A stretch of DNA of 36,067 bases from a virus (IMGVR_UViG_2563366915_000004); one strand, 5' to 3'; shown: positions 4,829 through 19,120, counted from the stretch's first letter. Notes: generated by a model from the letters alone, not told the origin. A program made the numbers and translations.

Positions 4829-5527
4829 AACGCACACCTCCGGAAATACCTTCCCCAAGATGCATCAGTTCTTCGTCCGTTCGCTCCGGTATCCCGTTCT
4901 CTTCCGGTAAAAGGCTGAAATCAGCCACCGCAGCATCACTGCTACCGGACACCATTCTCACGATCAATGCCTTCAGCGAGGCAAACTGCGCATCCATCCA
5001 CACATCACTGAAGCTCTGCATCCGGAAATAATCGCCCCACTCACCAAGCTCAGTGGCCGACATTTCCGACAGCATCCGCCGCCAGTCTGCCCGCCGGAAC
5101 TCCCGGGCAAGCCGCATGACAAACTGCATTTCCCGCGTCAGGACTTTTCCGGCGTCAGCACCTCATGCTCCAAATCCCCGGCATTCTCAATGACTCCCAT
5201 ACCGCTCAGCGACAGAACCATCTCCGCCCCCGCTCCCAGGGCATCATACGACCATGTTGTAATAACGGATGCGCAAAGCGTCTCAACATCCTGAGACTGT
5301 TCCGCATTCCACAGTGAGCGGGAAACCAGCCAGGCATTGATATCCATCCCCATCCGCAGAAAAGCAATCTGTCGTTCAGCCTCCGGCAGTTCTCCCTCTT
5401 CGGCATCAAACTTTGCCGTTCGCTGCTGAACAAACGCCAGATATTCAATTCTCTGCAGCCCGGACAGCTCACTGAGCACCACGGACTGCTTTTCATAATT
5501 AAACGTGCCCTGTTTCAGAAACATCAT
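4800..5527 (-). CDS. tail assembly chaperone G-T fusion, made by programmed -1 ribosomal frameshift near the end of G (about 5144-5152)
   Basis: ORF 4800..5129 is in the -1 frame relative to G and has no RBS of its own; reading from the last G codons (CCG GAA AAG TCC TGA) in the -1 frame gives V-L-T-R-E-MQFVMRLAREF..., continuous with the T ORF. Position between V and H matches the conserved G/GT arrangement. Confidence 0.7.
5138..5527 (-). CDS. tail assembly chaperone G
   Basis: ORF track 5138..5566; start placed at the internal ATG ATG (MMFLKQGTFNYEKQ...) preceded by GGTGGAG, because the upstream part of the track ORF overlaps a terminator-like hairpin. Acidic C-terminus typical of gpG. 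Confidence 0.75.
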   Translation of the reverse strand: MMFLKQGTFNYEKQSVVLSELSGLQRIEYLAFVQQRTAKFDAEEGELPEAERQIAFLRMGMDINAWLVSRSLWNAEQSQDVETLCASVITTWSYDALGAGAEMVLSLSGMGVIENAGDLEHEVLTPEKS

Positions 5528-5540
5528 GTTCTCCACCTGC

Positions 5541-5564
5541 AAAAAAGCCCCGGATAACCGGGGC
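5541..5564 (-). terminator. intrinsic terminator or attenuator between major tail gene V and G
   Basis: Perfect inverted repeat GCCCCGG-ttat-CCGGGGC followed on the minus strand by TTTTTTG, located between the V stop (5585) and the G RBS. Confidence 0.5.
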
Positions 5565-5584
5565 AAATGATGAGTATCGTCCTG

Positions 5585-6328
5585 TTAACCTGCGGCGCTG
5601 ACAGCCACCGCAGCCACTGCCACAAAATCGCCGTCAGAAGTCATGCCCACAATGCTGACACTGCCCTGCTTCACGCCTTTCACCGTGGCCACAAGCCCGT
5701 TCAGGGTCACCGTGGCAGTCTGTGGATCTGTCGAATGCACACTGATCGCTTTGTCACTGGCTCCGTCAGGTTTTACTGTAAAGGTCAGCGTGGTGGTTGC
5801 TCCCACTTTTACACTGGCAGATGCCGGTGCCACCGTCAGCCCGGTAACGCTCACTGTTTCAGTGCCTTCCTCTGCCAGATACGGACGCCCCACACCGCTG
5901 ATTTTCACTGTGCGGGTCATCACGTCTTTTGAGGCAATGGTTTTACCCAGTGAGCTCAGCCAGCCACGGAAAACATCAACAGTGCCGTTGGGATATTTGA
6001 TACGAAACGCGCAGACTTCACCGGAGTCGAACAACTGAACCAGTTTTTTCTGCCCGCTGTCACCCGGACGCCAGGCCAGCGTCGCCGAAGTATCACCGAC
6101 GGATTTCTGCCCCTGGGTTGTCGTTTTCCAGTCTGCATCTTCATCATCGAGATAAGTGTCATCTTCTGCATCAGCGGTCATTTCGCCAGGTTGCAGATCC
6201 TTCACCATCGCAAGACGCAGCCAGTCAGTGTCCGATAAAGGGTTCGCAAACGCATCGCCCTTGCCGGTGTACATCCAGAACGTCGTTCCCGCACCTTTCG
6301 TTTTTGCCAGTGGATTTGGTGTGGTCAT
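5585..6328 (-). CDS. major tail protein V (with C-terminal Ig-like domain)
   Basis: ORF track start is GTG; moved to the internal ATG (MTTPNPLAKTKGAGTTFW...) preceded by AAAGGAGGTG. Sequence resembles lambda gpV (KGAGTT...ANPLSD...YLDDEDADW...NGTVDVFRGW) with a Big_2-like C-terminal region. Confidence 0.9.
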   Translation of the reverse strand: MTTPNPLAKTKGAGTTFWMYTGKGDAFANPLSDTDWLRLAMVKDLQPGEMTADAEDDTYLDDEDADWKTTTQGQKSVGDTSATLAWRPGDSGQKKLVQLFDSGEVCAFRIKYPNGTVDVFRGWLSSLGKTIASKDVMTRTVKISGVGRPYLAEEGTETVSVTGLTVAPASASVKVGATTTLTFTVKPDGASDKAISVHSTDPQTATVTLNGLVATVKGVKQGSVSIVGMTSDGDFVAVAAVAVSAAG

Positions 6329-6339
6329 TGCCACCTCCT

Positions 6340-6741
6340 TTAATTCGTGTACGTGATCTGGTACGTGATTTCCGCCATCGCCCAGGTGGCCATCTCATTA
6401 TCACGTTGATAGTTAAAACCGAGAGGGATCAGGGTGTCGATGAGTCCGGAAAGTGCCGGTATATCATTCAGGGCCGGGAAAATGGTGCTCTCCATCCACA
6501 TATCCAGCTCTGAATCCGGTGCCTGTGCCCGGATGAAGACAGCAATATGCAGAACAGCCTGCCAGTCATCTTCATCCGTCATTTTTCCGGTGTACTGAGC
6601 ATCACTCAGCCACACCGCCACGGCAGGCAGTTCCTGCGCATCAATAAATGCCGGAAGCCCGTCAAAAAACGTGGCGCTGTCTCCACACTGTTCCCGAAGG
6701 CGTGCCAGTACGGCCTGGCGGATTTGTGTATGTCGGTTCAT
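6340..6741 (-). CDS. tail terminator protein U
   Basis: ORF 6340..6753; MNRHTQIRQAVLARL...ATFFDG...PAVAV...WQAVLHI...PDSELD.WMES aligns with lambda gpU as recalled. Start chosen at the internal Met forming an ATGA overlap with the Z stop; the upstream ATG at 6753 is an alternative. Confidence 0.8.
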   Translation of the reverse strand: MNRHTQIRQAVLARLREQCGDSATFFDGLPAFIDAQELPAVAVWLSDAQYTGKMTDEDDWQAVLHIAVFIRAQAPDSELDMWMESTIFPALNDIPALSGLIDTLIPLGFNYQRDNEMATWAMAEITYQITYTN

Positions 6742-7316
6742 CGGGTCAGCCATAACCTCAGTTGTTGTTTCAGTGCATACCCCAGCTGTTTCGGCATTTC
6801 CGCAGCAATAATGCGGTCGCGGGCATCTTCAAATGCCTGTGTCAGCGGTCCGGACAGCGGGACTTTCACCACATCAATGGGGTAACGATTTTTGCCATCA
6901 ATACGCCGCATCACATGCCAGCGACCATTCGCCAGTTGCTGAATAAACGCATCCCGGAAAAGATATTTACCCACCTTCAGCACACTGCCACGGTACTGCA
7001 GTTTTCCACCACGCCGGGCCAGTCTGACCCGGGCTGTCCCCAGCTTAATAGCGGGCAGATTGCCCCGGTTAACGCGGATCCTGGCCGTCATTTTTCCTGA
7101 CGGACTGGCTTTAAACACCCGGACACGCTGACGTACCAGTTTCAGGGGGATCCCTTTCACCTGGTTATCTCCCGCAACGGTATTCCCGGCAACCTGCCGG
7201 GTGGCGACCGAGACCGCTTTCTGTGCCACACGGTTTATCGCCCATGCGCTGGCCTGTGGCACCATACGGGTATCAAGGCTGTTCAGATTACGGATGGCAT
7301 TCTCAAGCCCCTTCAT
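6738..7316 (-). CDS. tail completion protein Z
   Basis: 192-aa ORF MKGLENAIRNLNSLDTRMVPQASAWAINRVAQKA..., same length and N-terminus pattern as lambda gpZ; AGAGGTG RBS upstream. Confidence 0.8.
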   Translation of the reverse strand: MKGLENAIRNLNSLDTRMVPQASAWAINRVAQKAVSVATRQVAGNTVAGDNQVKGIPLKLVRQRVRVFKASPSGKMTARIRVNRGNLPAIKLGTARVRLARRGGKLQYRGSVLKVGKYLFRDAFIQQLANGRWHVMRRIDGKNRYPIDVVKVPLSGPLTQAFEDARDRIIAAEMPKQLGYALKQQLRLWLTR

Positions 7317-7327
7317 CCCACACCTCT

Positions 7328-7603
7328 TTACTCAATAAAGATCATTGGCTTACCGTTAAAACGTTCATGCCGTGTGACCGTCCATTGTTGTCCGTCATAA
7401 ACAACGCGATCCCCGCGCCGTGGGCGGTATCCCGAAGAAAACACCACCAGAGAGACCGCAGGTCCGGACAGAGCATTCAGCTCTGCCAGTGTTTCTCCCG
7501 GGATCACAGTCATATCGACATCATTAATCGAGGCTGTCTTTCCCATCTTTCTGACCGTGATAGCATCCATACGCGCTGCCAGCCGGGAAAAGGGATCAGA
7601 CAT
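7328..7603 (-). CDS. small head-tail joining/adaptor protein (FII-position; family not recognised)
   Basis: 91-aa ORF between the capsid-associated genes and Z; start overlaps the stop of the upstream gene (ATGTCTGA); assignment is by synteny only. Confidence 0.45.
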   Translation of the reverse strand: MSDPFSRLAARMDAITVRKMGKTASINDVDMTVIPGETLAELNALSGPAVSLVVFSSGYRPRRGDRVVYDGQQWTVTRHERFNGKPMIFIE

Positions 7604-11486: not shown

Positions 11487-11698
11487 CAGAACCTCGCCAG
11501 CCGGTACCCGGGATGCCCCCGTCGTCGTGTAATCAGAGCCGCAAGGCGGCGCTCCCACTCCTGCCGTCCCTGCCGGATCTCAGATAAGTTTTCCATGGTC
11601 ATCTGCTGACCATTAAAGGTGACGGATTTTCCGTCCAGCACCGCCATTTCAGCTTCCGTATAACGCTGAATCATGGCTTCGATATCATTCTGGTTCAT
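11486..11698 (-). CDS. head-tail connector protein (gpW-like)
   Basis: About 70 aa, MNQNDIEAMIQRYTEAEMAVLDGKSVTFNGQQMT...RRRGHPGYRLARF, a gpW-like size and C-terminus; GGAGG RBS; overlaps the terminase stop (ATGA). Confidence 0.7.
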   Translation of the reverse strand: MNQNDIEAMIQRYTEAEMAVLDGKSVTFNGQQMTMENLSEIRQGRQEWERRLAALITRRRGHPGYRLARF

Positions 11699-13797
11699 AA
11701 CCATCCTCCGGAAGTCAGCCAGGGGTTAACATCGTCAGTTACTGTTTTCTTCCGTTTTTGTTTTTTAACAGGCGTGGATACCGGTTCCGGTGTGGGTGAC
11801 GGTTCGGTACTGTCCGGGACACACTCCAGCCAGGTTTCCCGGCTCGCCCACTCCGGTGCATCCGGCCAGCGGATCTTTTCGTATCCATGCAGAATGACCA
11901 GAGCCTCGGCATACACCATCAGGTCAAAAGCTTCGTTGGCACCGCGACCCGGCTTACTCCATTTCCCGTCACTGCTCCGCTCTTCATACGTCAGTTCGTC
12001 GTAAAACCAGCTCCCCAGCCAGTCAGGGAAATGCACATAGCCGGGACCTGGCGAGTCACGCCATAACGCGTTATTCACCCGGTCTTTCAGGGCATCCGTC
12101 TGAAGAAGCCAGAGCGGCACATCACCTGCGGCCTGCGCCCGGCGGCCCGTTCGTCCGGTGTTATCAGGGAATGTACGGCTGATCAGTTTTGCGCGCCGGA
12201 TGCTGTCACCCTTAAACAGGTAAATACGTTTACCAAGGCCATCACGACGGCAACGACGCCAGAATTTATAGGCATTATCAGTGACCCCGTCTTCACCGCC
12301 GGAGTCCACCGCCATTGCCATCAGTCGCATTTGTTGAGAAGGATCGGAGGCCAGCGGCCAGCTTTTATGAAAAACATCCGTCAGCAGGACATCCCAGTCT
12401 TCCGGATAGCTGGCCGGATCAATTCGCTGGCTCTCCCCGTCGCTGTCACCGCGCAATGACTGCGTGATGTTGTAACGATCAATAATCCAGCGTTCGCCAC
12501 GGCTGCCATAGCCCGTTACCTGAACCACAAAACGGCGATGACGTCCCGCCTGCACATCCACTGTCGCCACAAGGAAATTAACGCCATCCGGCACACTGCG
12601 GGAAGGAACTGGCTCTGCCCGCTGCTCAAGCAATTCACTTTTTCGTTGCTCCATGCTGGCGCGGGGAAGATAAGGTAATCCCCAGTCGGTATTGATAACC
12701 GTCTTGAGTGTCTCTTCACTTCCGGTTGTCTCGTATTCCTGTTCTGCAGTAAGCAGTTTGTAAACGAGTTGCGAGAGTGTCTGATAAGCAGCTGCCGGAC
12801 CCTCCATCCAGAATGACGCAATACGTGAACGCCGGGGATCACCATAACGACTGCCATCTGCATTGATGGATTCACCATCCCGTAACCAGACCCCACGTCC
12901 GTTCAGCTCGCGTTTTTGTTCAGGCAAAATCCGTCCTGAACAGGAAGGACACTGAATATAAGCCGCCTCACTTGCCAGCACAGGATCGGCAATATCACGG
13001 AAACCAGCAACCACATCGCCGCAGGGCTGAAAATACTCACCACAGTGTGGACAGGGCCAGTACCAGCGACGGCGATCGCCACGGTTATAGAGCGACAGGA
13101 TCCCCGTGGTTGGTGGAGCCTCATGCGGTGAAGTCCGTCGCCATTTCACATCCTTCACATCCCTGCCGGGGGAACTCTCCACCAGCGTCATACCACTGGA
13201 CATAAATGTGGTGGTACGTTTTGAGGCAAGAGAGAAGGCATCCCCCTCACCATCAATATCTTCCGGAAAACGGTCATAATCCGTCAGCGCCACGCATTTA
13301 TAATCTGATGAAGACATGATATTGACTGACGGCCAGCCGATTTTCAGGTAGTTGCCAGCAAGGAATGTTCTGTCATAAACGTTGTTGTCATTTTTGTTCG
13401 GACTCAGGCGACTGACCACTTCCGGGCTGACGCGAAACGTTCTGGCGAGTCGTTTTTTGGAGTGTTCGCGGGCTTTTTCCTCCGTCATCTGAATGATCAG
13501 CATATCAGCAGGATCGCAAATCACGTTGTAAATCACCCAGCCGTCAATCAGGCCGATAGTCTTGCCGGTTCGTGCCGGGCCAACAAATATCACTGCGTCG
13601 TATTCACGCGAGGCCAGGCAGTTCATAGGCTCAATAACATACGGTGCCACCAGCGGATCCCACGGGACTGAGTTCCCTGCCCCCATAGGCACCCGCATAT
13701 ACTGAGCAACGGCATCAGCAACCCGCATTCGTCTCGGTGCGCGAAGGATATAACCTGAATCGGTTCGTGCTGCCTTTGCGGTTTCCTGATTCAGCAT
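11695..13797 (-). CDS. terminase large subunit (lambda gpA-like)
   Basis: 700-aa ORF with Walker A-like VGPARTGKT, an acidic ATPase region and a C-terminal nuclease-like region; lies between the small terminase and W/portal. Confidence 0.9.
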   Translation of the reverse strand: MLNQETAKAARTDSGYILRAPRRMRVADAVAQYMRVPMGAGNSVPWDPLVAPYVIEPMNCLASREYDAVIFVGPARTGKTIGLIDGWVIYNVICDPADMLIIQMTEEKAREHSKKRLARTFRVSPEVVSRLSPNKNDNNVYDRTFLAGNYLKIGWPSVNIMSSSDYKCVALTDYDRFPEDIDGEGDAFSLASKRTTTFMSSGMTLVESSPGRDVKDVKWRRTSPHEAPPTTGILSLYNRGDRRRWYWPCPHCGEYFQPCGDVVAGFRDIADPVLASEAAYIQCPSCSGRILPEQKRELNGRGVWLRDGESINADGSRYGDPRRSRIASFWMEGPAAAYQTLSQLVYKLLTAEQEYETTGSEETLKTVINTDWGLPYLPRASMEQRKSELLEQRAEPVPSRSVPDGVNFLVATVDVQAGRHRRFVVQVTGYGSRGERWIIDRYNITQSLRGDSDGESQRIDPASYPEDWDVLLTDVFHKSWPLASDPSQQMRLMAMAVDSGGEDGVTDNAYKFWRRCRRDGLGKRIYLFKGDSIRRAKLISRTFPDNTGRTGRRAQAAGDVPLWLLQTDALKDRVNNALWRDSPGPGYVHFPDWLGSWFYDELTYEERSSDGKWSKPGRGANEAFDLMVYAEALVILHGYEKIRWPDAPEWASRETWLECVPDSTEPSPTPEPVSTPVKKQKRKKTVTDDVNPWLTSGGWL

Positions 13798-14291
13798 TAC
13801 TCCTCCTGCTGTAATTCCTCCTCATCATCCGCACCTGCTTCAGTCACCCGCAGGGCTATCTGATCGCGCAGATCATCAATAATGGACTGAACACGGCTCA
13901 CAGCGGCAGGCTGCAGACCGCAGTCACGTTCAAGAATATCCGGTAATGTCTCCAGCACCTGCACGACCGCTTTTGCCCAGATGGCAAACTCCCGTCTGAC
14001 ATCACTGGCCGGAATGAGTTGTGCCGTTTCCTGTTCGAACTTAAGACGCTCACGTTCAGACTGATACCAGGCTTTGCGCTCATGCGCGTCCATTTCGCCT
14101 TCTGCAACCGGCGGTGGTAATGCCAGAAATGCCGACACAATATCAACCACCCGATAAAGCTTGAGGTTGCTTTCATGCCCCCCTGCAACGGGTAGATTTT
14201 GCAGCCTTGCCGCAGCAGTCTGGCGATGTACACCTGACAATGCCGCCAGTTGACTGATATTCAGCGTCAGATTTTTTAACTCTCGATCCAT
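13797..14291 (-). CDS. terminase small subunit (Nu1 position, N-terminal HTH)
   Basis: 164-aa ORF with N-terminal helix-turn-helix LNISQLAALSGVHRQTAAARLQ and an acidic C-terminus; stop overlaps the terminase large subunit start; GGAG RBS. Confidence 0.7.
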   Translation of the reverse strand: MDRELKNLTLNISQLAALSGVHRQTAAARLQNLPVAGGHESNLKLYRVVDIVSAFLALPPPVAEGEMDAHERKAWYQSERERLKFEQETAQLIPASDVRREFAIWAKAVVQVLETLPDILERDCGLQPAAVSRVQSIIDDLRDQIALRVTEAGADDEEELQQEE

Positions 14292-14460
14292 ACCCGCTCC
14301 AGAATGTTTTAAACATGCATCTTGCGAACAACTTTAGGCAAACGGTGTTAGTGATGAACAAAAAACAATCAGAATCGACACCATAAAAATAAATCCACTG
14401 TAATATCAATCAATTACAGTAGTGGTGATGACGAATAAAATTTCAAAAACTAGCCTTTTT

Positions 14461-14540
14461 CCGCGACGCTCCCGCCCCGTGGCAGGGGCCCCCACCGGGA
14501 GGACCCGACAGCCTGACAGCCTGACAGCCGTGACGAGCAT
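14461..14540. other. candidate cos / terminase recognition region (GC-rich island with tandem 8-bp repeats)
   Basis: GC-rich segment with hairpin GCCCC-gtggca-GGGGC and tandem repeats cGACAGCC-TGACAGCC-TGACAGCC-GTGACGAG upstream of the small terminase gene; further TGACAG / CTGTCA inverted copies near 14785-14818. Placement is analogous to lambda cosN/cosB. Confidence 0.3.
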
Positions 14541-14853
14541 CTGATACAGCGCTTTACATAATGGCATAGGAATAATTCAGAAGGACATCACAGCATGCCC
14601 ACACAAATTAGTGTGAGTGTCCTGTTTCTTCCTACGCACAGGACTGACGAGCATGAGGGGAAAATATGCGAACCATAAATGCCTCATCTTCAGCAATGCA
14701 GCCGGCATCCGAACAGGACGATATTGTAAATTCACCTAATTACGAGGACATTGCAGTAGTTGAATTGCAGCTCTGTATTAGCCTGACAGTGACAGAATGC
14801 GATATTGACTCTGTCACAGGTGAAATAGTTTGAATGATTAGCAGTTATGGTGC

Positions 14854-15060
14854 TCAGTCAACCACCAGGGAATAATCCTTCGAATTCTTATCGTGCTTCA
14901 CCAACGCTGCCTCAATTGCCCTGAATGCTTCCAGAGACACCTGATGTTCTATACATGCAATTACAACATCCGGGTAACTCATAGAAATGGTGCTATTAAG
15001 CATATTTTTTACACGAATCAGATCCAACGAGAGTTCATCAGCAGATTGTTCTTTATTCAT
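14854..15060 (-). CDS. small moron protein (YbcW/YnfO-like)
   Basis: 68-aa ORF in the AT-rich region between the lysis and packaging genes; size and position match ybcW/ynfO of E. coli cryptic prophages. Confidence 0.5.
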
Positions 15061-15360
15061 TTTGTCGCTCCATGCGTTTGCTCGTCATCTAGCGGTTAAA
15101 ATATTACTTCAAATCTTACTGCATAAAAGAGGAAAAGTATGAAAGTTTGAGTACATCGACCTTACATACATCTGTCGGTTGCATATCCCTCCTGGATGCC
15201 AGCAAGGCTCAATTTTGTTACGCAATCAACACTATTCATTAAAAACAGGCTTAATATTTGACATAAATCATCAACAAAACACAAAGAGGTCAGACCAGAT
15301 TAAAACAATAAACACGATAATGCAAACTACGCGCCATCGTATCACATGGAAGGTTTACCA

Positions 15361-15771
15361 ATGGCTCAGGCTGCCATTTTTAAAGAAATATTCGATCAAG
15401 TGCGTAAAGATTTAAACTGTGAATTATTTTATTCTGAGCTAAAACGTCACAATATCTCACTTTATATTTACTATTTAGCCACAGATAATATTCACATTGT
15501 GTTAGAAAACGACAACATAGTGTTAGTAAAAGGACTCAAAAAGGTTGTAAATGTTAAATTCTCCAGAAACAAACATCTTATAGAGACCTCCTATAATAAG
15601 TTGAAATCAAAAGAAATCACATTTCAACAATACAGGGAAAATCTTGCTAAAGCAGGAGTTTTCCGATGGGTTACAAATATCCAGGAACACCAAAGATATT
15701 ACTATGCCTTTGATAACTCATTACTATTTACTGAAAGCATCCAGAAAACTACACAGATCTTACCACGCTAA
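15361..15771 (+). CDS. DUF1398-family protein (YbcV/YdfO-like)
   Basis: Track ORF 15346..15771; start moved to internal ATG ([18 protein letters not shown]...) preceded by GGAAGGT, giving 136 aa as in YbcV; AT-rich moron context. Confidence 0.7.
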
Positions 15772-15779
15772 ACCATAAC

Positions 15780-15815
15780 GTCCGGCTTCTCTCACTCCTG
15801 AGCCGGACTGCATTG
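15780..15815 (+). terminator. putative terminator downstream of the DUF1398 gene
   Basis: Inverted repeat GTCCGGCT-N13-AGCCGGAC followed by a T-rich stretch. Confidence 0.3.
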
Positions 15816-15922
15816 GTTTAATAAAAACCATCAACAATTGTGATTTAGATATTCGGAACCATTCAAATATAACAAAACCCCGTAAAAACGAGGTTTATGG
15901 ATAAATTTTATTATTGAATACA

Positions 15923-16096
15923 TCAGATTAAATTAATCTTGACATCATAGCTTTCAAGACCCGTCATTTTTTCCCGTGCGGTAAACTGAATACTGGTAAC
16001 TTCTTTCCCGGTCTTTTTCTTAAGTTCAATAATTTTTTTTGTTATATATTCAGAAATATCTGCTTCTGCTTTTGTTTTTAAGTTTTCAATATTCAT
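15923..16096 (-). CDS. gnsB: GnsA/GnsB-family protein
   Basis: 57-aa ORF below the track's length cutoff: MNIENLKTKAEADISEYITKKIIELKKKTGKEVTSIQFTAREKMTGLESYDVKINLI, closely resembling GnsB; AGAGGA RBS; sits in the same position as gnsB in Qin. Confidence 0.7.
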   Translation of the reverse strand: MNIENLKTKAEADISEYITKKIIELKKKTGKEVTSIQFTAREKMTGLESYDVKINLI

Positions 16097-16267
16097 CATT
16101 TCCTCTTTTAGTCTGTTATGACTTTCCAGTTACACAGTAAGTCGATTATATGGTGCAAACGTGTAAAAGATAAGATGAAACATCGCAATAATCAACATAC
16201 GATAGTCTAAATTTTACACAAACAGACAAAGAGAATTTTCCTGAATTATCAATACAATAGCATCAAA

Positions 16268-16498
16268 TCAACTCAAGAGCCTTATTGCTGCTTCCAGAAT
16301 TTCTTCTGAAGTAACATGTCGATCCGCGGCTACATAAATGACTTTATGATCTCCGGTCAGAGATGGAAACCCTGCGGCCATTACAGTAAGGTGTGTTTTT
16401 TCGCCATTTGGATATTCACGCATGATGGTGTTAACTCCAGTCATCGCTGGCACTACCACTGCTGGTTCAGAGTTAAAAAAAACTATGATTTTTTTCAT
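16268..16498 (-). CDS. hypothetical small protein (YnfN-position)
   Basis: Track ORF 16268..16540; start placed at internal Met MKKIIVFFN... because a terminator-like hairpin occupies 16541-16563; no strong RBS. Confidence 0.4.
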   Translation of the reverse strand: MKKIIVFFNSEPAVVVPAMTGVNTIMREYPNGEKTHLTVMAAGFPSLTGDHKVIYVAADRHVTSEEILEAAIRLLS

Positions 16499-16540
16499 GA
16501 TGTTACCGTAGTATGTGAGTATCCATCGAATAGATACCAA

Positions 16541-16563
16541 GCAAAAAAGCTCCCGAAGGAGCC
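16541..16563 (-). terminator. putative intrinsic terminator (minus strand) upstream of the YnfN-position gene and downstream of the cspI-like gene
   Basis: Minus strand GGCTCC-ttcg-GGAGCT followed by TTTTTTGC. Confidence 0.4.
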
Positions 16564-16769
16564 TTCATTTTCACTTTTTTAAATCCAACGACAGACGGCT
16601 GGCATTTAAGTATTGTGAAATATTATCAAATGTAATCATCATTGATTTACAAAAGATACATTTTGCCCCGAAAGGATTCATGTCAGAAACATCAAAAGAT
16701 GATGTTCTATACTGGGAACCATGACAACACGGGCATCTAAAGTGAATATGGTTTGTAATATTGTCTACC

Positions 16770-16982
16770 TCAAAGCGCCACTACATGAACAGCGGCAGGA
16801 CCTTTAGGTCCGTTCTCAATACCAAATTCAACTTCCTGATTCTCAGTTAATGTTTTGAAATCGTTGCTCTGAATTGCTGAGAAATGGACAAACACATCTT
16901 TGCTGCCATCTTTCGGCGTGATGAAACCAAAACCTTTTTCAGGGTTAAACCATTTCACTAAACCAGTCATTTTGTTAGACAT
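16770..16982 (-). CDS. cspI: cold shock protein (CspI-like)
   Basis: 70-aa [73 protein letters not shown] with RNP1/RNP2 CSD motifs (KGFGFI, VFVHF). Confidence 0.9.
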
Positions 16983-17345
16983 AATTATTACCTTTTGAAG
17001 AAATTAGCCCTTGGGCAGAATGGTCCGAAAAAAAATATCAGAGAGAAAAACCAACAAGGAAATCTCAAGAGGTACAAATAATAAAATTATAACAATGACT
17101 GCTTCAGATAAATTTGTAACAAACCAGAACACCATTAACGCATGATTAACCACCCATAGCAAGGATTACTTTTGTAAAGAAAAACACAGCAATGAAAGAA
17201 TAGCTTTATTTATTAATAATAACGTGTCATTCTGATTAAGACCTTTTATCTTACCCTTAAGATTTCAGGAATTTTGGCTCATGGAAGAGTCCTTTTTATT
17301 TAAATTTTACATTCCGCGATGTAAATGTTCCGATTTAATATTACC

Positions 17346-18369
<1,024 letters not shown>

Positions 18370-18373
<4 letters not shown>

Positions 18374-18657
18374 ATATATTTATGATGAGGACGCTCGTGC
18401 TTATTGGCAGGATTTTCAATCTTAAAGGAGTACTGATGCTGCAGATAAGACTCAACTTTTTCTGACAATTTTTCTGCTACTTCCAGGAAGACTTGCCGGA
18501 CGCTCCTTCTGGCTGCTGCCTCATAAAACTCCAGCGCAGCTCCTTCAACACGGTCCATGGCGACATCCAGGTCAAAAATTTCACCGTCAAAGCGTTCTTT
18601 GTCCTGTAAGGCTACAGTTACCGTAACTTTATTCTCAAAATTACGGACTCCTTTCAC
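18370..18657 (-). CDS. DUF1327-like protein (YdfR-position)
   Basis: 95-aa non-hydrophobic ORF between holin and endolysin, the same place as ydfR in Qin; ATGA overlap with the lysozyme start. Confidence 0.55.
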
Positions 18658-18685
18658 AACCAGTTCATAGTCTTGAGTCGTTGGA

Positions 18686-18901
18686 TTACTCTCCTCTCGC
18701 AGCCTTACGCCTGTCTTCTTTAATCTTGAAATAAAGATTTGTCAGATACGTCAGCAGGCCAAAAACCAGGCTACCCAGCACACCGATTGCAGCCCACTGT
18801 GACGGAGTTACTTTATCGAGTAACTGCAATGCCCAGAAACCAGCATTACCCGCCGATGTGCCATAGGCAACACCTGTTGTTAACTTATCCATTGATTTCA
18901 T
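18686..18901 (-). CDS. holin, phage-21 S-type pinholin with dual-start motif
   Basis: Track ORF 18686..18976; start moved to internal Met: [71 protein letters not shown] (71 aa). MKSM dual start, two transmembrane segments and a charged C-terminus; GGTGAGGAT RBS. Confidence 0.85.
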
Positions 18902-19120
18902 ATCCTCACCCCGATGTACACGGATGGTGCAATATGTTTGAAAAGATCGGAGTCTACGGGGTAGTTTTGACAGCACACGTTGTTCTCAACGGCGCTAAAA
19001 AAACATACACATTAAAAATGTGGGTAATTATTTTGAAAGAAAGTCATATATAAAATAATAATACGAGAAATGTTTTCATATTTAGTGTACTGTATACGGC
19101 CATTTATACAGGAAAAGCCT

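Follow-up and report, generated by a model that had tools for sequence, protein, structure and literature searches.

The viral sequence IMGVR_UViG_2563366915_000004 (36,067 nt, hereafter the window; all coordinates are in window numbering) carries a short GC-rich island upstream of its small-terminase gene, and the question raised by this locus is where the chromosome is cut for packaging and which of the elements around the island take part. The original prediction had proposed the interval as a candidate cos and terminase-binding site, different in sequence from lambda cos, and had pointed to a GC hairpin, to tandem GACAGCC repeats and to TGACAG/CTGTCA copies further on. We conclude, with a probability of roughly 90%, that 14344-14506 on the minus strand is the cohesive-end site (cos) of a lambda-like, Qin-type prophage with the layout cosQ, cosN, I2 and cosB. 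What is shown comes from homology and conservation of the sequence, from gene families and from the ends of deposited records; the exact positions of the nicks, the R and IHF assignments and the lack of a function of the repeats are inferred. The interval aligned with the right and left ends of lambda, and the proposed location of cos was supported; the tandem repeats and the distant TGACAG/CTGTCA copies, to which the function had been ascribed, lie outside the site.

Genomic context and composition of the interval

All genes flanking the interval are on the minus strand (Table 1). The Qin-type cargo between the lysis genes and cos (~15100-19000) comprised cspI, ymcF, ynfR, ynfN, gnsB and the DUF1398 gene. 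At roughly 5300-7400 a ClpP-like prohead protease and a major capsid protein are encoded as one fused protein; a protease-capsid fusion has been reported for Gifsy-2 (PMC12315714). A 349-bp query (14292-14640) showed 100% identity to DNA of a lambdoid prophage of the Qin-like kind in E. coli 118UI and was matched in 2113 of 5426 complete E. coli genomes, so that a cos located here gives the position of the chromosome ends for a prophage type present in that many of them; RefSeq has no annotation over the 14292-14640 stretch. As the original prediction had it, the island is set within AT-richer DNA, with a GC content of 75.6% at 14460-14537 as against 33.9% on the terminase side (14292-14459) and 43.4% on the other flank (14538-14853). 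Judged by its sequence, the island is the cosQ-cosN core together with a flanking array of 8-bp repeats, the latter recovered by Tandem Repeats Finder as had been described.

Table 1. Features of the window around the predicted cos site. Positions given as bp take window 14477, the predicted left end, as bp 1; slashes mark predicted nicks.
Feature	Coordinates	Strand	Sequence or remarks
Lysis genes	18657-17346	minus	
Cold-shock and other cargo genes, then DUF1398 gene	between lysis genes and ybcW-like gene	minus	
ybcW-like gene	15060-14854	minus	
562-bp interval containing the GC island	14292-14853		between ybcW-like gene and small-terminase start (14291)
8-bp repeats	14507-14534	minus	GGCTGTCA GGCTGTCA GGCTGTC(G); period 8, 3.4 copies (Tandem Repeats Finder)
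cosQ	14500-14506	minus	GGGTCCT; identical to lambda 48473-48479; packaging-termination signal
cosN	14464-14479	minus	CG/GGGCGGGAGCGT/CG; 12/16 identity to lambda cosN
I2-like segment	14444-14463	minus	CGGAAAAAGGCTAGTTTTTG; A5 and T5 tracts; about bp 15-34
Candidate R3	14424-14431	minus	TCATCACC; bp 47-54, forward; motif TCRWCAC
Candidate I1 (IHF)	14404-14416	plus	TATCAATCAATTA; bp 62-74; exact match to WATCAANNNNTTR
Candidate R2	14375-14382	plus	TCGACACC; bp 96-103; inverted relative to R3 and R1
Candidate R1	14350-14357	minus	TCATCACT; bp 121-128, forward
Small terminase gene	13797-14291	minus	164 aa; Pfam DUF1441; phrog_141 'terminase small subunit', E 7e-74
Large terminase gene	11695-13797	minus	700 aa, gpA type; Pfam GpA_ATPase E 1.6e-71, GpA_nuclease E 1.1e-85
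Lambda-family portal gene	after large terminase in gene order	minus	

A lambda-type cosQ-cosN core in the GC island

Read on the minus strand, the island runs GGCTGTCA GGCTGTCA GGCTGTC GGGTCCT CCCGGTGGGGGCCCCTGCCACG / GGGCGGGAGCGT / CGCGGAAAAAGGCTAGTTTTTG, and it aligned base for base with the joined right and left ends of lambda (...ACGGGTCCT TTCCGGTGATCCGACAGGTTACG / GGGCGGCGACCT / CGCGGGTTTTCGC...). Contrary to what had been proposed, the island is therefore not unlike lambda cos: GGGTCCT was identical at 7/7 positions, the 16-bp nicking site at 12/16 and cohesive-end positions 1-6 at 6/6. The GGGCGG left half with CG flanks at both nick positions was present at 14479-14464, and the 7-bp cosQ lay at a short fixed distance upstream of cosN, the spacing between cosQ and the nick being 22 nt here and 23 nt in lambda. 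We take GGGTCCT to be cosQ, as reportedly described by Wieczorek and Feiss (2001); in the literature searched, no paper was found that writes out the sequence of cosQ. The 7-bp cosQ is described as highly conserved (PMC4669245).

By analogy with lambda, nicks are predicted at 14478/14477 on the minus strand and 14466/14465 on the plus strand, which would leave the 12-nt 5′ cohesive end GGGCGGGAGCGT (14477 to 14466). Differences from the cohesive end of lambda were confined to positions 7, 8, 9 and 11, and the flanking CG pairs were kept. In lambda-like phages natural variation falls on cohesive-end positions 7-12, with conservation of the left half and of the flanks (PMC4669245; PMC9303873), and the Gifsy-1 end differs at positions 8, 9 and 11 (PMC4669245). 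A paper of its own has been devoted to natural cosN variation in this group (Vahanian et al., 2017, as cited in PMC12315714). A literature search for the exact 12-mer GGGCGGGAGCGT returned unrelated mammalian papers only.

The ends of deposited records point to the same position. The records of phages Tritos (OV696610) and cdtI (AB285204) start with GGGCGGGAGCGTCGCGG, opening with GGGCGGGAGCGT, and end with ...CTGCCACG (...CCACG), which corresponds to a cut at window 14478/14477, these record ends having been either measured or set by analogy with lambda; a literature search for a paper on phage Tritos found none. In addition, the linear assembly of mEp460_4F5 (LR595868.1), whose cosB is of the same type as that of the window, is broken near the predicted nick. 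This record starts with CCACGGGGCGGGAGCG-CGG, with 3 nt missing inside the cohesive-end 12-mer, and it ends 5 nt before the predicted nick; the break and the 3-nt defect probably arose when the assembly ran into a physical end of the DNA.

Conservation of the core across relatives

Two sets of relatives were used to assess how far the core is conserved. The first was collected from IMG/VR with a 20-mer across the nick and gave 121 usable sites among the matches listed; as these sites were picked by an exact cosN 20-mer, their cosN is conserved by construction. Among these listed matches GGGTCCT was exact in 118/121 sites and the 22-nt spacing between cosQ and the nick was found in 114/121. Because this set had been chosen through cosN itself, a second, cosN-independent set was built with the large-terminase protein in species-representative genomes, giving 80 loci with 61-99% protein identity. 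In 34 of the 80 loci an exact GGGTCCT preceded the large-terminase gene by 630-746 bp; in the other 46 it was absent from the expected place, exact matches only being counted. The same 34 loci showed GGGTCCT, a 21-23 nt spacer, a CCACG/GGGCGG-type (or CCGAG/GGGG-type) site and then CGCGGAAAACGGCTAGTTTT, and they came from Escherichia, Kluyvera, Citrobacter, Enterobacter, Klebsiella, Kosakonia, Pantoea, Serratia, Sodalis, Tatumella, Rosenbergiella, Rouxiella and others. When the large-terminase relatives were aligned, similarity between lineages started at cosQ, and the DNA to the left of it fell into unrelated families.

On the right side, the I2-like segment preceded every cosB class in conserved form and was identical in at least four of them (CGCGGAAAACGGCTAGTTTT being its cross-genus form), such that one cosQ-cosN-I2 core is common to at least four cosB/small-terminase classes. 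The junction of this mosaic could be placed in the named phages: the window is identical to Tritos through 34 bp past the nick and to cdtI through 33 bp, after which both diverge fully into a different cosB and small-terminase class.

The probable cosB, the small terminase and the proposed course of packaging

cosB is most likely formed by the 175 bp of AT-rich DNA that separate the cut site from the small-terminase gene. In lambda-like phages cosB is located between cosN and the small-terminase gene (PMC4669245), and the layout R3-I1-R2-R1 is found in lambda, phi80, 21 and Gifsy-1, with R3 of lambda at bp 50-65 (PMC9026076). In the window, counting from the predicted left end, the ATG of the small terminase falls on bp 187, the Nu1 start of lambda being at bp 191, and the DNA between cosN and this gene carries candidate elements in the order R3, I1, inverted R2 and R1, whose order and positions, read from the sequence, would match the R3-I1-R2-R1 architecture. 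A large terminase of the gpA type and a small terminase with an N-terminal winged helix-turn-helix are encoded immediately downstream.

The candidate R sites were recognized by the motif TCRWCAC, which occurs three times within 81 bp of cosB as against 26 times in the whole 36 kb, an enrichment that reads optimistically since the motif was defined after inspection of the sequence. In 42 distinct sequences of the window's cosB class, the R3 candidate TCATCACC was near-invariant, and changes were concentrated in the DNA separating the motifs and at N positions of the IHF consensus; the R2 candidate kept GTGTCGATT within the class. Relatives from other classes of this small-terminase family carried TCATCATC at the R3 position, an inverted TCGACATC at the R2 position and TCAYCATC at the R1 position. 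All three candidate R sites thus have CAC in the window's class and CAT in other classes, and a difference that is uniform at three sites fits recognition of all three by one protein. The match at bp 62-74 was the only exact match to the IHF consensus WATCAANNNNTTR in the 36-kb window; in relatives the I1 candidate varied on N positions of the consensus, and an ATTGAT core at this position was kept across genera.

An AT-rich palindrome is centred on the IHF match (ACTGTAAT-N8-ATTACAGT, 14397-14420; in minus-strand form CTACTGTAAT-N8-ATTACAGTGG, 14395-14422). Together with the T-rich run after it, this palindrome, situated just upstream of the small-terminase gene, looked terminator-like in a simple scan, and it was the sole 'terminator' in a promoter and terminator scan that otherwise gave weak consensus matches only. 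In relatives either arm showed A-to-G changes, with which an RNA would still pair through G-U whereas the symmetry of the DNA would be lost.

The small terminase itself is of another family than that of lambda. BLASTP of this protein against lambda Nu1 showed no similarity (E 20), a sequence search against PDB chains gave nothing useful, and an hhalign alignment of its domain on Nu1 residues 2-48 was weak (probability 13%). The protein belongs to DUF1441 and had no Phage_Nu1 match, and the TCRWCAC motifs are unlike the repeated sequence between the lambda left end and the Nu1 start. A DUF1441 small terminase and R motifs that are not those of lambda point to a different initiation-specificity class, and the site very probably works like lambda cos in that other class; the suggestion that the packaging specificity might differ from that of lambda was in this respect, that of initiation, very probably correct.

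By analogy with lambda, initiation would begin with binding of the winged-helix N-terminal domain of the DUF1441 small terminase to R3 (forward), R2 (inverted) and R1 (forward), with IHF probably bending the DNA between R3 and R2. The gpA-type large terminase would thereby be placed on CG/GGGCGGGAGCGT/CG and would introduce nicks 12 nt apart, yielding 5′ cohesive ends. At termination, the translocating enzyme would recognize GGGTCCT 22 nt ahead of the next cut site.

The 8-bp repeats and other DNA left of cosQ

The repeat array (Tandem Repeats Finder unit GACAGCCT) abuts cosQ on its left; counted from the right end predicted for the virion chromosome, it occupies bp -30 to -57. Its copy number proved to be variable. 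Among the IMG/VR matches listed (121 sites), 31 had no unit, 3 had one, 75 had two and 9 had three. Sorted by class, again among the matches listed, the window's cosB class had 0 units in 16 sites, 1 in 1, 2 in 33 and 3 in 1; the class of Tritos and cdtI had 0 in 11, 2 in 25 and 3 in 7; and a third cosB class had 0, 1 and 2 units. Unit number therefore assorted independently of the cosB/small-terminase class, and repeats adjoined three classes, among the matches listed. The repeats were absent in phage cdtI and in all non-Escherichia large-terminase relatives. Versions with two and with three units had identical flanks over the 90 nt compared, as expected of replication slippage. In a functional, iteron-like protein-binding array, number and sequence of the units would be expected to be kept among elements with the same cognate protein, and the spread of 0-3 units within one small-terminase class does not fit this. 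A copy number of 0-3 that is independent of class and limited to one lineage indicates that the array is probably dispensable, and we infer that it is probably not needed for cos function. Most likely, slippage has generated a copy-number polymorphism here, the DNA at this right-hand extremity of the phage chromosome being non-essential.

Two units were the commonest state (75/121 among the matches listed), and for this reason the array may have some function, possibly a minor accessory role. One reading of this kind makes the array an accessory element of the right end, acting in modulation of termination, in ejection or in end protection, as an alternative to a palindrome found at this place in other phages, and we consider it improbable. 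At least two units were present in 84/121 IMG/VR sites among the matches listed, and a conserved palindrome lies left of cosQ in lambda, in cdtI and in 12/34 large-terminase relatives, 18-22 nt away from it, so that in many lineages the DNA directly left of cosQ is other than random. Against this stand the 31/121 unit-less sites and the finding that 20/30 classified unit-less sites also lacked the palindrome, both among the matches listed, as well as the variation of unit number between identical flanks that slippage predicts; no protein is known to bind the motif, and nothing in the literature searched calls for sequence left of cosQ.

The palindrome is TGATAATCATTATCA in lambda (bp 48452-48466, 18-22 nt left of cosQ), and it resembles the Fur-box consensus. 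Palindromes of this type with <=3 mismatches at the same offset were those found in the 12 of 34 relatives and in cdtI, while shuffled flanks reached <=3 mismatches to TGATAATCATTATCA in 0.2% of trials. At window 14507-14534 the 8-bp repeats stand in its place, and in lambda it falls within the 48446-182 fragment used as a complete cos. One could regard the DNA left of cosQ as a second, interchangeable functional module of lambda-like cos, made up of the palindrome TGATAATCATTATCA at its fixed offset in lambda, cdtI and many enterobacterial relatives and of the GGCTGTCA array in the present Escherichia lineage, a proposal which we judge distinctly unlikely; if it were true, a factor of host or phage origin could be bound by either element and act in the termination of packaging or at the chromosome end that is injected first.

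The view of the original prediction, in which the GACAGCC repeats and the distant TGACAG/CTGTCA copies are small-terminase binding sites and the functional equivalent of cosB, is less probable still and would have to be called very unlikely. The repeats are real and adjoin the cut site, and a fourth TCGTCAC motif is located just left of them (14530-14536). They are, however, on the far side of cosQ, to its left, at the chromosome end from which terminase moves away, and cosB of lambda-like phages is elsewhere (PMC4669245). From 0 to 3 units occurred beside one and the same nicking site within the window's class, repeats were also found beside two other cosB classes, and cdtI with an identical cut site has none, nor have the non-Escherichia relatives.

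The inverted TGACAG/CTGTCA copies were indeed found, at 14784-14817, about 40-70 bp downstream of the ybcW-like gene. On the minus strand they read GTGACAGAG-N-TCTGTCAC and correspond to lambda 47981-48008, about 465 bp left of cosQ in lambda. A 238-bp lambda fragment, 48446-182, includes cosQ, cosN and cosB (PMC4856287); the inverted repeat is outside this sufficient fragment and so is not part of cos as currently defined, which argues against its proposed role in packaging. Its stems (8-9 bp) were invariant in 11 distinct sequences and its loop had diverged by several substitutions and an indel; as the stems never vary, covariation says nothing for or against a structure. The 10-mer AGCCTGACAG recurs identically at 14780, and TGACAG had 28 matches in the window compared with 17.8 +/- 4.4 expected, an enrichment that was not significant.

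A 55-aa ORF (14666-14833, plus strand, antisense to the late operon) overlaps this inverted repeat. It gave a full-length match to phrog_4035 (E 1.2e-41) and no Pfam match. In the homologous lambda DNA the 5′ part has diverged and two 1-nt indels offset each other, and the phrog_4035 family may therefore be an annotation artefact of conserved non-coding DNA.

That the GC island is instead a hairpin terminator, an RNA or a remnant of coding sequence, with packaging by a headful mechanism, has a negligible probability: the island does contain an imperfect palindrome and is overlapped by a 53-aa ORF (14567-14406, minus strand), but the predicted 'GC hairpin' had a single-stranded DNA fold of -16.6 kcal/mol as against -15.6 +/- 2.2 for shuffles (z = -0.45), for which reason the hairpin was dropped, its centre GGGGCCCC was not kept in relatives, Rfam gave no match over 14000-15400 on both strands at E up to 1, no ORF overlapping the island (the 53-aa ORF included) had a Pfam match, the large terminase is of the gpA type and accompanied by a lambda-family portal, and the island aligned with the lambda ends. 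Headful (pac) packaging was likewise rejected, the large terminase being of the gpA type and a lambda-type cosQ-cosN being present.

Relation to known phages

The site is of an ordinary, already known kind, the lambda-type cos of a common E. coli prophage. It shares with lambda cos the order and spacing of the subsites, the identical GGGTCCT, a 12-nt 5′ end starting with GGGCGG between CG flanks, the A/T-tract segment that follows, and an IHF consensus between forward and inverted small-terminase sites with a third forward site after them (the latter as candidates here), as well as the gpA-type large terminase and the lambda-family portal. It differs from lambda in that cosN has 8 rotationally symmetric positions where lambda has 10, in that the candidate R motifs are unrelated and a DUF1441 protein takes the place of Nu1, and in that the 8-bp array is found where lambda has its palindrome left of cosQ.

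The components of the site are also already known from other phages, the cosQ-cosN core at the deposited ends of cdtI and Tritos, and the small-terminase/cosB type in mEp460 and Ayreon. With cdtI and Tritos the window has cosQ, the 12-nt end GGGCGGGAGCGT and the I2 segment all in common; in the 423 bp to the left of the nick, where all three repeat units are shared, Tritos and the window were 99.8% identical. Both, in contrast, belong to another cosB/small-terminase class, with 42% protein identity and DNA that diverges 34 bp past the nick, and cdtI carries a TGATAATCAC-type palindrome in place of the 8-bp repeats. The small terminases of mEp460 and Ayreon were 99.4-100% identical to that of the window, and mEp460 and mEp460_4F5 share its cosB; records of the mEp460 type differ in having two imperfect repeat units (AGCTGTCAGGCTGAC), compared with three in the window. 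More distant small terminases of the same family are found in Gifsy-2 (47%) and Fels-1 (41%). The putative cos of mEp213 and LLS, GGGCGGCGCGCT (PMC12315714), belongs to the same lambda-like family of 12-nt ends with a variable right half; this end was also found in three large-terminase relatives, and the small terminase of mEp213 and LLS was 57% identical to that of the window.

The present site thus adds one more natural lambda-type cosN variant with a variable right half, which is nothing unexpected biologically, and it follows the known mosaic pattern in which a single cosQ-cosN core is joined to several cosB/small-terminase classes. As a by-product, the analysis yields a testable R3-I1-R2-R1 assignment for the DUF1441 small-terminase family, for which the contrast between CAT and CAC is a supporting clue. 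For want of a located cos, the record of phage Ayreon starts at its small-terminase gene (PMC5764929), and the likely cohesive-end sequence given here helps in opening and orienting phage genome records such as this one. Near-identical enterobacterial prophage terminase regions were also seen on contigs (e.g., JAEWTL010000010.1) labelled as Bacillota, Geobacteraceae or Saccharibacteria MAGs, and these contigs are probably binning contamination.
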